Assembly (NCBI RefSeq): GCF_041248615.1
Contig: NZ_CP158426.1
From: Escherichia coli
GTDB lineage: Bacteria; Pseudomonadota; Gammaproteobacteria; Enterobacterales; Enterobacteriaceae
DNA length: 64,000 nucleotides
Direction: 5' to 3' (one strand)
Shown here: piece by piece, positions 3,334-35,169 of the stretch
Numbering within the stretch: position 1 is the first letter of the stretch
Layout: each line of letters opens with the position of its first letter
Program-made: the position numbers and the translations under genes
The notes under the pieces: model-generated
Told to the model about the DNA's origin: nothing
Databases searched by the model: none
The model's input: the letters and a program-made list of their open reading frames with translations, nothing else

Positions 3334-4088
3334 TATTCTTTCTCCTCACGGGGTGACAGGGAGAGGCTCCGGCGCAATGACGGCGTAGAGATCTTTTCTA
3401 TGGCAATTTTCTTCTGGCGGAATTTTGAGGGGACGCCACGAACCACGCCCTTCGGCCAGATCACGCAGGGACGTAACTGGTCACCTGCAGGCGTAGGCTT
3501 CAGGAACGGCGGGGGTGTCAATTTATCCTCGTGGGTTCCGGGTACGGCATAGTGGGGAGCAGCAGCGTAACCGATTCGTTGCACATAGCTGGTTCCGGAA
3601 AAAGCCGCTTCCGGCTGTTCTCCGGTACGGAAATTGCCGGAGTAGTAGCAACTCAGTGCTCTTTTCAGCGAGCCGCCGCGTCGGTAACAGTCGTTGAGGA
3701 TGTGTTCGAAAACAGACAAATTGGTACAGGGATCAAGCAGCTCAGAGGCTGTCACACCGTAATGATGGAAATTGGTGCTGGTAATTTGCATCAGCCCCAC
3801 AGAATAACGGCGGCTCTGCGCCATAAGGCGACCTATGATTCGCTCGGCTCTTTCCCGGCTGGTGGGCTGATGAGAAATGATTTTATTGTGACCGAAGGTG
3901 CCTGAGCCCTTTGGGATAATTTCGGCGATCGCATAAGGGTTAAAATTGGACTCCACCCTTACGACGTCGAGTGCTGTGGACGGATGAATGCTGGTGGCAC
4001 ACTGCATGGCCACCGCCAGAAAGGCAGATGTGGAAAGCATAGTAGCCTCGGGAATGCGGGCAGCGTACATAGCCAAAGAACCATGCAT
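3333..4088 (-). CDS. virB1: VirB1-like lytic transglycosylase
   Basis: 251-aa ORF with SLT-type motifs (VESNFNPYA, GLMQI); first gene of the virB cluster; true start may be internal. Confidence 0.7.
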   Translation of the reverse strand: MHGSLAMYAARIPEATMLSTSAFLAVAMQCATSIHPSTALDVVRVESNFNPYAIAEIIPKGSGTFGHNKIISHQPTSRERAERIIGRLMAQSRRYSVGLMQITSTNFHHYGVTASELLDPCTNLSVFEHILNDCYRRGGSLKRALSCYYSGNFRTGEQPEAAFSGTSYVQRIGYAAAPHYAVPGTHEDKLTPPPFLKPTPAGDQLRPCVIWPKGVVRGVPSKFRQKKIAIEKISTPSLRRSLSLSPREEKE

Positions 4089-13000: not shown

Positions 13001-13739
13001 TCTGACGTTCGCATTCAAAAAGAGTAAAACTGCCTTTAACAATATCAGCTTCTCCATTGATGAAGGTGAGGTACTGTGCGTATTAGGACCGAATGGTGTT
13101 GGCAAAACAACATTGCTTAAAACGGTTACCGGTCTGTATCAACCGGTTAGTGGCTCATGTCATATTGGCCGAGTGGGAAACCGGAAAGCTCGTATGGCGT
13201 ATGTCCCGCAGGCCAAACGTGTTCACTTTTCTTACAATGTACTCGATTTCATCTCCTTTGGGTGCCCATTACGGGGCGGAATGCTGGCATCTCCTGGGGC
13301 GAGGGACATCGAAAAAGCGGCGCGAATATTGTCGGGACTTGGCGCTTCATATCTTGCAACCAAAGACGTTAACCAGATAAGTGGAGGTGAACTACAGATG
13401 TGCTACATCGCGAAGGCGCTGGTCTCAGAGCCGGACATCCTTGTGCTTGATGAACCTGAATCAAATCTTGATTTTAATAATCAGTCTCTCATTATCAATT
13501 GGTTGCACACGTTGTCGCGAGAGAAAAAAGTTACTATTATCCTGAATACGCACTTCATCAATCATGCAAATAACATTGCAGATAAATGTTTGCTAATGGG
13601 AAAAGATAGTTACTGTTTTGGAACAACACAGAGTGTCTTACAAGAGTCTCTCCTCGCCGATTATTTCCATGTTCCCGTTAAACGCTGTCATTTTGAACAC
13701 AAAGGAATACAGAAAGAATCATTTATTGTTGCAGTGTGA
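12984..13739 (+). CDS. ABC importer ATP-binding protein
   Basis: Walker A GPNGVGKTT, signature LSGGELQM, Walker B LVLDEP; overlaps permease stop (coupled). Confidence 0.85.
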   Translation: MIEVNNLTFAFKKSKTAFNNISFSIDEGEVLCVLGPNGVGKTTLLKTVTGLYQPVSGSCHIGRVGNRKARMAYVPQAKRVHFSYNVLDFISFGCPLRGGMLASPGARDIEKAARILSGLGASYLATKDVNQISGGELQMCYIAKALVSEPDILVLDEPESNLDFNNQSLIINWLHTLSREKKVTIILNTHFINHANNIADKCLLMGKDSYCFGTTQSVLQESLLADYFHVPVKRCHFEHKGIQKESFIVAV

Positions 13740-32154: not shown

Positions 32155-32520
32155 ATGACTGAACGCATAGAATTTGTTTTGCCTTACCCGCCGACGGTGA
32201 ATACCTACTGGCGACGTCATGGCAATACGTATTTCATCTCGGAAGCCGGAAAGCGTTATCGCCGTGATGTGGCGCTAATTGTTCGCCAGCAGCGGCTGAA
32301 ATTAAGCCTGTCCGGAAGGCTGGCGATAAAGATTATTGCAGAGCCACCGGATAAGCGCCGCCGCGACCTGGACAATATCCTGAAGGCACCACTGGATGCG
32401 CTGACGCATGCCGGACTACTTATAGACGACGAGCAGTTTGATGAAATCAATATTGTGCGCGGTCAGCTCGTTCCTGGTGGGCGGCTGGGGATAAAAATCA
32501 CAGAACTGGAGTGCGCATGA
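32155..32520 (+). CDS. rusA: RusA Holliday-junction resolvase
   Basis: 121-aa ORF MTERIEFVLPYPPTVNTYWRRHG...DLDNILKAPLDALTHAGLLIDD. Confidence 0.85.
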   Translation: MTERIEFVLPYPPTVNTYWRRHGNTYFISEAGKRYRRDVALIVRQQRLKLSLSGRLAIKIIAEPPDKRRRDLDNILKAPLDALTHAGLLIDDEQFDEINIVRGQLVPGGRLGIKITELECA

Positions 32521-33206
32521 ATAACCAGTATTTACAGTTTGTGCGTGAGCAGCTCATTATCGCCACCGCTGATTTGAGTGGGGCAACAAAAGGTCAGCTT
32601 GAAGCCTGGCAAGAGAATGCCATGTTCGATACAGGGCGTTACAGGCGAAAAAAAATCCGGTACCGCGATGAAGTGACTGGAAAAATGATAACGCGGGATA
32701 ATCCACCAATCCCGGGAAAGCAATCGCTGGCGAAGGGGACGTCAATTCCTCTGGTCAGTCCGGTTGAGTTTTCGACATCATCGTGGCGGCGGGCTGTTCT
32801 GTCTCTTGAAGAACATCATAAAGCCTGGTTGTTGTGGTGTTACAGCGGGAGTATTTGTTGGGAATATCAGATCGCGATAACACAGTGGGCGTGGAATGAA
32901 TTTAATACTCAATCCGGTACCAGAAAAATTGCAGGGAAAACGCAGGAACGCCTGAAAAAATTAATCTGGCTGGCGGCGCAGGCAGTAAAAGCAGAACTTT
33001 TTGGTGGGGAAGGTTATGAATACCAGGAGCTGGCATTACTGGCGGGAGTGACAACTAAAAACTGGTCCAAAACATTTACTCGTCACTGGGTTGCAATGAA
33101 ACACATTTTTCACCGACTTGATAGTGAGGCTTTATTGTTTGTAATGAGAACACGTTCAAAACAAAAGGCGGCATTTTCAAAGCAAAGTATTGCAAAAGTA
33201 GATTGA
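32511..33206 (+). CDS. Late-gene antiterminator Q-like protein
   Basis: 231-aa ORF after rusA and before tR'-like terminator, tRNAs and lysis genes; family assigned by position and length. Confidence 0.6.
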   Translation: MRMNNQYLQFVREQLIIATADLSGATKGQLEAWQENAMFDTGRYRRKKIRYRDEVTGKMITRDNPPIPGKQSLAKGTSIPLVSPVEFSTSSWRRAVLSLEEHHKAWLLWCYSGSICWEYQIAITQWAWNEFNTQSGTRKIAGKTQERLKKLIWLAAQAVKAELFGGEGYEYQELALLAGVTTKNWSKTFTRHWVAMKHIFHRLDSEALLFVMRTRSKQKAAFSKQSIAKVD

Positions 33207-33273
33207 AAGGCATATATTTCATGCAAATCTGATATTTTGCCGATTTTGTACGTGATGGCAAAAGCAAACAAAA

Positions 33274-33295
33274 CCCGCCCACAAGCGGGTTTTTT
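33274..33295 (+). terminator. tR'-like intrinsic terminator after Q
   Basis: CCCGC-CCACAA-GCGGG hairpin followed by TTTTTTG. Confidence 0.55.
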
Positions 33296-33401
33296 GTGCC
33301 ACTTATCTCGGATAGACATGGTGAATGCGCTAGTGGAGGAGATAAGGGTGATTTTTGAATGCTTGCAACATTGATTTCGTAACGTTATTATCCTGCGCCC
33401 G

Positions 33402-33477
33402 GCCCTTTAGCTCAGTGGTGAGAGCGAGCGACTCATAATCGCCAGGTCGCTGGTTCAAATCCAGCAAGGGCCACCAG
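33402..33477 (+). tRNA. tRNA with CAT anticodon (Met or Ile2, ileZ-like)
   Basis: GGCCCTTTAGCTCAGTGGTGAGAGC...CTCATAATCGC...GGTTCAAATCCAGCAAGGGCCACCA. Confidence 0.8.
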
Positions 33478-33478
33478 C

Positions 33479-33555
33479 CGCCACTAGCTCATCAGGAAAG
33501 AGCGTCAACCCTTTAAGTTGAGTGTGCGAGGTTCGAGTCCCCGGTGGCGGTCCAG
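33479..33555 (+). tRNA. tRNA-like gene, anticodon ambiguous (loop CCTTTAA, nominal TTT)
   Basis: 7-bp acceptor stem CCGCCAC/GTGGCGG, D and T arms present, CCA end; atypical C at position 33; T-stem has one A-C mismatch. Confidence 0.5.
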
Positions 33556-33556
33556 T

Positions 33557-33633
<77 letters not shown>

Positions 33634-33635
33634 AT

Positions 33636-33711
<76 letters not shown>

Positions 33712-33916
33712 TTAGAGTCTTTCAGTCTGCGATGATGGGAAATCCCGGAGTGACTGAAAGACGTTTAAGTTATGAATGATCGCTTTTTTTGCAAAATTGC
33801 TGTGCAGAAATACTAACCTTCGGGCAGGCGATCATTCATAAGCACTCTGCTTTTATTCCGATTAACTGTGGGTGGTTTGTTGGATAGAGTGCTTCCCTTA
33901 CTGTATATATCGTTTC

Positions 33917-33940
33917 GCCCGCTTTTGCGGGTTTTTCTTT
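33917..33940 (+). terminator. Intrinsic terminator upstream of holin
   Basis: GCCCGC-TTTT-GCGGG hairpin plus TTTTTCTTTTC. Confidence 0.5.
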
Positions 33941-34001
33941 TCAAATCCCTTTCATTTCTCAGTGTAAAACTACGCCATCCGTTATTTGCGGAGGTGAGGC
34001 T

Positions 34002-34217
34002 ATGAAATCCATGGACAAAATTTCAACGGGCATTGCCTACGGCACCTCCGCAGGCAGTGCTGGCTACTGGTTTTTACAGTGGCTTGATCAGGTCAGTCCG
34101 TCACAGTGGGCTGCGATTGGTGTACTGGGGAGTCTGGTTCTGGGCTTCCTGACTTATCTGACAAATCTGTACTTCAAAATCAGAGAAGACAAGCGTAAGG
34201 CTGCACGGGGAGAGTAA
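34002..34217 (+). CDS. Holin, phage 21 S-like pinholin (dual start MKSM/MDKI)
   Basis: 71-aa [32 protein letters not shown]...; two TM segments; GAGG RBS. Confidence 0.8.
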
Positions 34218-34221
34218 TTCA

Positions 34222-34572
34222 ATGACTCAAAACTATGAACTGATTGTGAAAGGGATCCGCAATTTTGAGAATAAAGTTACGGTAACTTTAGCGTTACGGG
34301 ACAAAAAACGCTTTGACGGCGAAATTTTTGACCTGGACATCTCGCTGGACCGTGTTGAAGGTGCCGCGCTGGAGTTTTATGAGGCAGCAGCCAGAAGGAG
34401 CATCAGACAGGTCTTCCTGGATGTTGCTGCCGGGTTATGTGAAGGGGATGAGCAGTCGCCGGAAAAGCGCCCCGTAATTTTAGAGGCGCAGAATGTGTGG
34501 ATAACCTACAAAGGAAAGCTACCAGGAAGAATTACTGGTTCTCTGAAGACTCCTCCGGAATCACAACCTTAA
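34222..34572 (+). CDS. YdfR-like protein between holin and endolysin
   Basis: 116-aa ORF in the slot YdfR occupies in Qin as I recall; no catalytic motif. Confidence 0.45.
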   Translation: MTQNYELIVKGIRNFENKVTVTLALRDKKRFDGEIFDLDISLDRVEGAALEFYEAAARRSIRQVFLDVAAGLCEGDEQSPEKRPVILEAQNVWITYKGKLPGRITGSLKTPPESQP

Positions 34573-34635
34573 GTCACTGACCGGAACAGATAAACCTGTC
34601 CGTGGGCAGAAACCGATAAATCCTGATAAATATCC

Positions 34636-35169
34636 ATGAACGCAATAATCAGATACGGCCTGTCGGCTGCCGTTCTGGCACTGATTGCCGTCGGTGCGCC
34701 CGCGCCTGATATTCTCGACCAGTTTCTGGATGAAAAAGAAGGTAACCACACAACGGCATACCGCGATGGTTCCGGCATCTGGACCATCTGTCGGGGTGCC
34801 ACGATGGTGGATGGAAAACCCGTTTTTCCCGGTATGAAACTGTCGAAGGAAAAATGCGACCAGGTCAACGCCATTGAGCGTGATAAGGCGCTGGCATGGG
34901 TGGAGCGCAATATTAAAGTACCACTGACCGAACCACAAAAAGCGGGTATCGCGTCATTTTGTCCCTATAACATTGGCCCCGGTAAGTGTTTTCCATCGAC
35001 GTTTTATAAGCGGCTGAATGCTGGTGATCGTAAGGGCGCATGCGAGGCGATTCGCTGGTGGATAAAAGATGGTGGGCGCGATTGCCGCATACGTTCAAAT
35101 AACTGCTATGGACAGGTTATTCGTCGTGACCAGGAAAGCGCATTAGCCTGTTGGGGAATAGATCAGTGA
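34636..35169 (+). CDS. SAR endolysin (T4-type lysozyme fold)
   Basis: 177-aa ORF; N-terminal SAR-like [18 protein letters not shown]; EG..T catalytic region ([22 protein letters not shown]). Confidence 0.85.

Follow-up and report, generated by a model that had tools for sequence, protein, structure and literature searches.

The 64,000-nucleotide (nt) stretch of Escherichia coli DNA analysed here (hereafter the window), a lambdoid prophage, contains a 290-base-pair (bp) segment that extends from the end of a transfer RNA (tRNA) gene for glycine at position 33710 to the holin start codon at 34002. Judged from its sequence, the part of this segment at 33711–33942 is a conserved, highly structured non-coding RNA gene of about 230 nt on the plus strand. 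Purifying selection acts on the element as a unit, and the element itself is what the locus carries as cargo. We put at roughly even chances the proposal that it represents the 3′ trailer of an autonomous prophage tRNA operon, which processing would set free as a stable non-coding RNA. The original prediction saw here either a structured RNA or a recombination scar where cargo had been exchanged. Its first suggestion is borne out by paired arms that are conserved through compensatory or G-U-compatible changes in about 90 distinct homologs from several genera; the scar is not, since the element is selected as a unit, although its module boundaries do turn out to be recombination junctions. A lack of conservation of the arms had been named as grounds for abandoning the structured RNA, and the covariance analysis found the opposite.

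The two long inverted repeats on which that prediction was built are both real and perfect, with coordinates that had been off by 1–4 nt only: the first has arms of 11 nt (33717–33727 and 33752–33762; GTCTTTCAGTC and GACTGAAAGAC) and the second arms of 14 nt (33770–33783 and 33828–33841; TTATGAATGATCGC and GCGATCATTCATAA). A third perfect repeat, with 9-nt arms at 33840–33848 and 33886–33894, had been overlooked. By our own estimate, which considers perfect inverted repeats within 120 nt in a sequence of 290 nt, the chance expectation is ~1e-4 for a 14-mer and ~8e-3 for an 11-mer. The terminator previously placed at 33917–33940 is also present, as a stem at 33917–33932 (GCCCGC-TTTT-GCGGGT) followed by a T-rich run (TTTTCTTTTC). 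Folded as plus-strand RNA, 33711–33945 reaches a minimum free energy (MFE) of -80.9 kcal/mol, against -56.6 ± 4.1 kcal/mol for 200 dinucleotide shuffles, none of which folded as well (z = -5.9); the minus strand attains just -61.3 kcal/mol, 20 kcal/mol worse than the plus strand. The plus-strand fold consists of three consecutive stem-loops (SL1, SL2 and SL3), an A/U-rich linker and the terminator (Table 1). SL1 includes an internal loop, UGCGAUGAU opposite GGAGU, and an apical GGG/CCC hairpin of 3–4 bp, and SL2 encloses an inner hairpin, UUUUUGCA-AAAUUGCUG-UGCAGAAA, together with a small CC-UUCG-GG hairpin.

Base pairing was assessed in an alignment of 89 distinct full-length homologs, with the MFE fold of the window as the structure, which is thus taken from one of the aligned sequences. 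Standard pairs form in 88.9% of 6270 pair cells, compared with 38–46% when the 3′ partners are slid by 1–3 columns; most of the sequences fall into two clades, and such cell counts overstate the number of independent events. Changes on both sides of a pair (double compensatory changes) are seen in 30 of the 72 pairs, and the covariation score is 0.208; column shuffles gave 0.149 ± 0.003, none of 500 reaching the observed value, and slid controls no more than 0.095. The compensatory helices therefore exceed both the slid and the shuffled controls, as is expected of a structured RNA under selection. All parts of the fold contribute. In SL1, U-A/C-G, C-G/U-A and A-U/G-U swaps occur at 40:28, 41:34 and 44:28, and 11 of the 15 pairs of its helix 2 have changed on both sides. 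SL2 base swaps include U-A/A-U at 48:41 and G-C/U-A at 46:35, while at the base of SL3 three adjacent pairs swap U-A/C-G, C-G/U-A and C-G/U-A, all at ratios of about 40:30. Five of the six terminator pairs have likewise changed on both sides. Applied to a separate alignment of 72 sequences restricted to SL2–SL3, RNAalifold independently predicted the same two hairpins, with compensatory changes at 12 of 38 pairs, among them U-A/A-U at 45:27, G-C/U-A at 42:24 and G-C/U-A at 44:21 in SL2. Several pairs exist in three states (for example U-A, U-G and C-G). G-U cells (850) far outnumber A-C cells (265), and the pairing therefore acts in the plus-strand RNA, not in its complement and not simply in DNA.

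Homologs were retrieved with exact patterns located in SL1, in the SL2 loop or in the SL3 strand. Such retrieval inflates the apparent invariance of each motif in its own retrieval set, and motif invariance was consequently judged solely in loci retrieved via a different motif. The most constant sequences are the SL2 apex (UUUUUGCA-AAAUUGCUG-UG) and the 3′ strand of the SL3 upper stem (GGGUGGUUUGUUGGAU), a G/U-rich strand that is near-invariant even in loci fetched by SL1 or SL2 patterns. Its partner varies (UCCGAUUAACU, UCCAGUUAACC, UCCGUACAACC and others), with G-U flexibility keeping the two paired. Constancy of one strand while its intramolecular partner drifts is expected of a strand with a second, external partner, and suggests that the SL3 strand may have one.

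The RNA does not appear to encode a protein. It had been noted that the segment lacks an open reading frame (ORF), which is true in the useful sense: the ORFs overlapping the 290 bp are mechanical ones of 25–45 amino acids, and no frame is kept in the homologs. The longest ORF in the conserved part (33789–33887, with a TTG start) is frameshifted by a 1-nt indel in homologs of the HK639 type, and frame-breaking 1-nt indels inside SL2 in the alignment leave no conserved reading frame of the kind expected for a small protein or a type I toxin.

Three readings of individual motifs were tried and rejected. Kissing between the SL2 loop AUUGC and SL1 GCGAU is contradicted by the SL1 variants ACUAU, GAGAU and GCUAU, which are uncompensated. 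A hammerhead or C/D-box k-turn built from SL1 UGAUGA...CUGA was discarded since the CUGA lies in a stem and Rfam snoRNA matches amount to 10–15 bits. Finally, a boxA/boxC-like interpretation of the 3′ arm of SL2 and the loop of SL3 fails on inspection, as its boxA-like stretch is paired and covaries.

The element is widespread. Of 5426 complete E. coli genomes, 535 (about one in ten) carry the 235-bp stretch at 95–100% identity, in every case in the chromosome and without an annotated feature. These copies form two clades, about 525 of the window type and 10 of the HK639 type, and the carriers include ST131, avian pathogenic E. coli (APEC), the enteroaggregative E. coli (EAEC) 042 and environmental strains. 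Four sequenced coliphages carry the stretch at 98–100% identity, and phage HK639 has a version that is 77% identical, around which its GenBank record lists 'terminator' features only. Outside E. coli, at least five further enterobacterial genera have prophages with the element. When one genome per species was scanned, it was recovered from Citrobacter sedlakii, Yokenella regensburgei, Phytobacter ursingii and a Pseudocitrobacter metagenome-assembled genome; in Salmonella phage Fels-1 a moron ORF has been inserted between SL1 and SL2, and SL3 is lost. Three different conserved strings, used as exact patterns, brought roughly 190 loci out of IMG/VR. A covariance model of SL2–SL3 (R1) detects one copy in the window (33764–33896, 138 bits), everything else being noise. 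Five IMG/VR contigs that share the 20-mer TTTTGCAAAATTGCTGTG (L007, L010, L035, L056 and L081) were missed by this model and were treated as chance matches.

In most of these loci the element accompanies tRNA genes. In 116 of 150 loci it starts 1–6 nt 3′ of tRNA-Gly(UCC), the last gene of the array, as it does in the window, and in other loci 1–3 nt after tRNA-Thr or another tRNA. The arrays follow the order Met-X-Thr-Gly, and the element moves with the array rather than with a given Q gene or lysis cassette, both of which differ between HK639, FAM21845, OW1E2 and the window. Upstream of the first tRNA, diverged loci share TTGCAn, a 17-nt spacer, TATTAT, TATCAT or TATCTT, and a GC-rich stretch that ends about 9 nt before the tRNA; in the window this discriminator, CCTGCGCCC, follows the -10 hexamer and ends 9 nt 5′ of the first tRNA. 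We take this to be the layout of stringently controlled stable-RNA promoters. On the other side, a terminator lies 10–29 nt after SL3 in 57 of 86 distinct downstream sequences and within 150 nt in 60 of them, and a second, tandem terminator is often present. The sequence 3′ of SL3 is unrelated between the clades in the alignment, and the terminator of the HK639-type clade has a different sequence. Many loci without a called terminator do have the same terminator in a weaker form, with G-to-T changes in the 3′ arm. Together, the promoter, the tRNAs, the RNA element and its terminator form an autonomous unit between tR′ and the lysis genes, that is, a moron, in agreement with the earlier description of this region as a moron slot: it lies between the Q gene, pR′, tR′ and the tRNA array on one side and a P21-type holin on the other, where other lambdoid prophages carry morons and small RNAs (sRNAs).

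Alignment to related prophages shows that this slot holds the SL1–SL3 element in many of them, with E2348/69 prophage PP6 and Fels-1 as instructive departures. PP6 (L200, 12690–13010) has a near-identical pR′/tR′ region, the same tRNA promoter and the same first tRNA; its array ends with tRNA-Arg and an immediate terminator, followed by the insertion sequence (IS) ISEc13, and the covariance model finds no copy of the RNA in this prophage. Because PP6 has the tRNAs without the RNA, the RNA is a separate cargo that is not needed to make the tRNAs. In Fels-1 (L199, 2122–2484), a small ORF, STM0906.1n, sits exactly between SL1 and SL2, a moron within a moron slot; its N-terminus looks like a signal peptide.

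Two further features of the operon vary between loci. The second tRNA of the array is Lys(UUU) in the window (33478–33554, with a low Rfam score of 44 bits), and elsewhere in IMG/VR it is Arg(UCU), Phe, Leu(UAA), in one case a stop-reading tRNA with a UUA anticodon, or an odd-loop tRNA left unnamed by ARAGORN, with Met(CAT), Thr and Gly constant; this variability might be related to codon supply or help to evade defences that target tRNAs. Many window-type copies of the terminator (33926–33936; L027, L031, L040, L066 and others) show a 3′ arm eroded stepwise at constant length, from GCGGGTTTTT through GCGGTTTTTT to GCGTTTTTTT, which shortens the stem from 6 to 4 to 3 pairs, and the terminator may be either tuned or decaying in part of the population.

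The element itself is modular, and its boundaries are mosaic recombination junctions. SL1 is missing from about 12 of the 150 loci, where SL2 follows the tRNA directly or stands without SL1. Three loci (L180, L190 and L193) retain the basal stem of SL2 and the whole of SL3, with the SL2 interior replaced; in some prophages homology ends after SL2, and in one locus (L185) the element is truncated by an IS element.

How might such an RNA arise and work? In a lysogen, transcription of the operon would start at its own promoter and end at the terminator, ahead of the holin gene, leaving holin and endolysin silent. Maturation of the tRNA 3′ end would cut at CCA-G↓UU(U/A), a junction that is conserved 3′ of the tRNA and that resembles the preference of RNase E for RN↓WUU, and would thereby free a trailer RNA of about 225 nt. 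The 5′ end of this trailer would be paired almost from its first nucleotide and its 3′ end would be the terminator hairpin; both ends being protected, the RNA should accumulate. During lytic growth, Q-modified polymerase arriving from pR′ would read through the terminator and, after tRNA excision, the same hairpins would become the 5′ end of the late messenger RNA (mRNA) for lysis and morphogenesis. A role in trans, if there is one, would most plausibly be exerted via the invariant SL2 apex and the G/U-rich strand of SL3.

A bolder version, to which we attach only tentative belief, is that the element is the first example of a phage RNA family so far undescribed, whose members travel with prophage tRNA operons and exert effects in trans, either on the host or on rival phages. 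Such an RNA could serve as a sponge for a protein or an sRNA, or could go along with the variable tRNA cassette as a counter-defence decoy, and would operate through the SL2 apex UUUUUGCAAAAUUGCUGUG and the normally masked G/U strand of SL3, GGGUGGUUUGUUGGAU.

Several points weigh against a stable trailer RNA, in addition to the concentration of the homologs in two clades and the retrieval bias described above. We infer its transcription, cleavage site, stability and any role in trans from the sequence. In many window-type copies G-to-T changes have weakened the terminator, and some loci lack one. HK639 has the full RNA, yet lacks the tRNA-operon promoter and its tRNAs are decayed; in Fels-1 and a few IMG/VR loci SL2 persists, sometimes together with SL3, in the absence of any tRNA. 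Since the RNA is kept in HK639, Fels-1 and some IMG/VR loci, it is not strictly operon-dependent and may act in the late transcript. The element also offers very little single-stranded sequence, unlike typical seed-bearing Hfq sRNAs, and the 64-kb window contains no complement of the conserved loops.

Action in the late transcript is the essence of the best-surviving alternative, which we consider rather unlikely as a full account: that the element is a cis-acting 5′ stabiliser of the late mRNA with no function in trans. Excision of the tRNAs from the Q-antiterminated late transcript would leave an exposed, monophosphorylated 5′ end, which a stable hairpin abutting the tRNA would shield from 5′-end-dependent decay by RNase E, as the 5′ hairpin of ompA does for its mRNA. 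This would account for the constant distance of 1–6 nt between the tRNA 3′ end and the first hairpin, whichever hairpin (SL1 or SL2) and whichever tRNA is involved, for the association of the element with the tRNA array and not with a particular Q or lysis cassette, and for stems that covary while their exact sequence drifts; in HK639, moreover, the RNA would have to come solely from pR′ read-through, there being no tRNA-operon promoter. A mere stabiliser nevertheless leaves the near-invariant SL2 apex and SL3 G/U strand unexplained, and it accounts neither for three hairpins nor for one or two terminators directly after them. PP6, too, manages with tRNAs and no element, although this prophage carries an IS insertion and may be defective. 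Stabilisation of the late mRNA is compatible with release of a trailer RNA in lysogens, and both could hold.

It is improbable that the element is primarily a processing signal for RNase III, comparable to the inter-cistronic sites of T7, in which cleavage in the internal loop of SL3, and perhaps of SL2 as well, would detach the stable-RNA portion from the late mRNA. SL3 is an irregular helix of about 20 bp with an asymmetric internal loop between two stems, a shape that we take to resemble the T7 R-sites, and it is located exactly at the boundary between tRNA genes and mRNA. Processing of the tRNAs by RNase E or RNase P, however, already separates these RNAs, and invariance of one strand is unexpected for a pure double-stranded-RNA signal.

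Little credence can be given to a put-like or riboswitch-like cis regulator of terminator read-through into the lysis genes, even though the abutting SL2 and SL3, placed directly upstream of one or two terminators, superficially recall the HK022 put RNA (PMC9378689). The element measures about 125–180 nt and belongs to the late region, and Q, present in every locus examined, already carries polymerase past terminators. If the tRNA promoter drove constitutive read-through into holin and endolysin, the lysogen would presumably die. We found no conserved alternative pairing between SL3 and the terminator, the sequence of which differs between the clades.

A non-functional remnant, whether a recombination scar or a decayed tRNA or other cargo with chance palindromes, is hardly credible. 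In its favour are the mosaic locus, the optional SL1, the loss of homology at module edges, the insertions of IS elements and morons, and the placement by MAFFT of tRNA-Gly 3′ halves under SL1 in loci without SL1. Against it, compensatory changes keep all the helices across genera, the loops do not vary in sequence when ascertained independently, copies with 95–100% identity are present in about 10% of E. coli genomes, and the similarity of SL1 to tRNA-Gly, rejected as a sign of descent, is not above chance (local score 14, versus 12.0 ± 2.1 for shuffles, 432 of 2000 being as high).

The locus as a whole is summarised in Table 1. Upstream of the segment, the prophage carries genes for DUF968, RusA and the Q antiterminator; the lysis cassette continues after holin S with DUF1327, lysozyme and Rz (Pfam PF07041, PF00959 and PF03245). 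A promoter scan found no internal promoter within 33711–34001 on either strand. Lambda phages match the window solely at 33971–34010, the last ~40 bp before the holin gene being lambda-like.

Table 1. Features of the late region around the structured RNA element, in window coordinates
Feature	Position	Strand	Evidence or remark
Late antiterminator Q gene	32511..33206	+	Pfam PF06323 Phage_antiter_Q, E 8.6e-92
pR′-like late promoter, TTGCAA-17-TATATT	33190-33218	+	Promoter scan; overlaps the Q stop codon
tR′-like hairpin with T run	33264-33299	+	Inverted repeat I2
tRNA-operon sigma-70 promoter, TTGCAA-17-TATTAT	33363-33391	+	Promoter scan; putative activity
Four closely packed tRNA genes: Met-type CAT, Lys TTT, Thr TGT, Gly TCC	33401..33710	+	ARAGORN; Rfam tRNA 44-74 bits
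SL1	33712..33767	+	11-bp perfect stem (33717-33727 / 33752-33762) plus outer pairs; optional module
SL2	33770..33841	+	13-15 bp basal stem; apical sequence highly conserved
SL3	33841..33894	+	Abuts SL2; 9-bp basal stem, asymmetric internal loop, 10-bp upper stem
A/U-rich single-stranded linker	33895..33916	+	Sequence differs between the two clades
Intrinsic terminator GCCCGC-UUUU-GCGGGU with U-rich tail	33917..33942	+	Predicted 3′ end of the tRNA-operon transcript in the lysogen
Spacer and lambda-like holin leader	33943..34001	+	Outside the conserved RNA
Holin S, P21 class II type, first gene of the lysis cassette	34002..34217	+	Pfam PF04971, E 1.4e-35

Some observations concern the surroundings of the element. 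The pR′-like promoter and tR′-like terminator (33190–33299) predict a leader RNA of some 70 nt that corresponds to lambda 6S or StxS; this region shows a weak, sub-threshold likeness to Rfam families at 33222–33295 (isrK, 22.7 bits against a threshold of 50; isrJ, 24.5 bits against a threshold of 37), both of them sRNAs of Salmonella prophages. A perfect 10-nt inverted repeat (I5; 33987–33996 and 34043–34052) surrounds the holin start codon, with one arm, TGCGGAGGTG, upstream and including the Shine-Dalgarno sequence and the other, CACCTCCGCA, within the holin gene; it lies in the part that matches the lambda S leader and probably controls translation of the holin. Other Q-to-lysis leaders contain recurrent motifs of their own. 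A short hairpin, TCACCGGGAGGCACCCGGCAC, absent from the window, recurs in HK639 (L001, ~3385–3410), in three copies in Fels-1 (L199, ~1395–1420, ~1775–1800 and ~2940–2965) and in other prophages (L023). The motif G(T/C)GAATCCCCCTnnGCGGnGGGG is found in FAM21845 and OW1E2 (L002/L003, ~1750–1775), in Fels-1 (~1305–1335, ~1700–1730 and ~2840–2870) and in PP6 (13082–13100), where it adjoins the ISEc13 copy; it could be an IS end or another small structured element.

The element is widespread, unannotated and clearly selected, and belongs to a class in which new members are expected. If a stable RNA is made in lysogens, a widespread regulator would be added to the accessory genome of E. coli, and tRNA morons, which occupy the place where Shiga toxin (Stx) phages carry their toxin genes, would hold a second class of cargo besides tRNAs. 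Should it instead be a cis stabiliser, it would show how phages can excise tRNAs and still preserve the late mRNA downstream.

Comparison with described RNAs points to a family not yet described, within known kinds. A cmscan of 32500–35000 against Rfam 15 (E up to 1) returned the four tRNAs and weak isrJ, isrK and Phe-leader matches, all of them at 33215–33299, and at E up to 10 the interval 33705–33960 gave seven chance-level matches of 10–18 bits, against thresholds of 37–99; in the element no family, ribozymes and riboswitches included, reached its gathering threshold. In the collection of papers searched, diagnostic sequence strings retrieved nothing, and keywords for tRNA-trailer or late-region prophage RNAs nothing relevant. 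We treat the element as an undescribed RNA family that falls among prophage moron RNAs and tRNA-operon trailer RNAs.

Among the former, PasA, PasC and PasD of enteropathogenic E. coli (EPEC), AgvB and AsxR, STnc100 and StxS share with the element the Q-to-holin slot, an intrinsic terminator as 3′ end and an uneven occurrence among E. coli strains. PasA, PasC and PasD lie next to the holin in lambdoid prophages (Pas papers), and AgvB, AsxR, STnc100, Esr41 and Sok are cited as Rfam families of this neighbourhood (Pas preprint, 2026), none of which has an Rfam match in the element. The Q-to-holin sRNAs are 60–240 nt long, have their own promoters and are bound by Hfq, and PasA is encoded on the opposite strand, whereas the element is fused to a tRNA operon. 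Comparison of 33200–34100 with the E2348/69 loci of PasA (L005) and PasB (L004) by blastn at word size 7 gave chance matches only (at most 18 nt, E at least 0.017), and their intergenic regions match nowhere in the window, which sets the element apart from PasA and PasB; STnc100, which is said to be related to PasD and is in Rfam, is unmatched, PasC and PasD themselves not having been compared directly. Because PP6 lacks the RNA, the published RIL-seq data for E2348/69 (2021) are uninformative about it.

Like SL2 and SL3, put RNAs are encoded in cis by phages and comprise two adjacent stem-loops, and HK639, which uses put RNAs, has both kinds. Put RNAs, however, are about 70 nt long and lie downstream of PL and PR, while the element is larger, sits 3′ of Q in the late region and precedes terminators that have to function in the lysogen. 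The put RNA of HK022 is a two-hairpin, V-shaped structure (PMC9378689). The element differs from it in being located downstream of Q and the late promoter, and in size, SL2 and SL3 spanning about 125 nt, or about 180 nt with SL1.

A parallel in phages is offered by the species 1 and species 2 RNAs of T4 (rnaC and rnaD), small, stable, structured RNAs of unexplained function that are co-processed with the tRNAs of the T4 tRNA cluster. T4 is a virulent myovirus, whereas the element resides in lambdoid prophages, and no relation is claimed.

For the proposed working of the element, the closest match is provided by 3′ETS-leuZ of the glyW-cysT-leuZ operon and rtT RNA of the tyrT operon (RF00391 in Rfam), each a non-coding RNA lying between the last tRNA and an intrinsic terminator and expected to be released by tRNA 3′ processing. 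The window has this very layout, with the end of tRNA-Gly at 33710, hairpins at 33712–33894 and the terminator at 33917–33942, all on the plus strand, and tRNA-Gly followed by the element is also the arrangement of the 116 loci counted above. The resemblance is one of position, no homology to either RNA being found with Rfam 15 at E up to 10. Both 3′ETS-leuZ and rtT are chromosomal, and 3′ETS-leuZ, which pairs with sRNAs and sponges them, is about 50 nt long with an exposed pairing region; the element, by contrast, is prophage-borne, about 230 nt long and almost fully paired.

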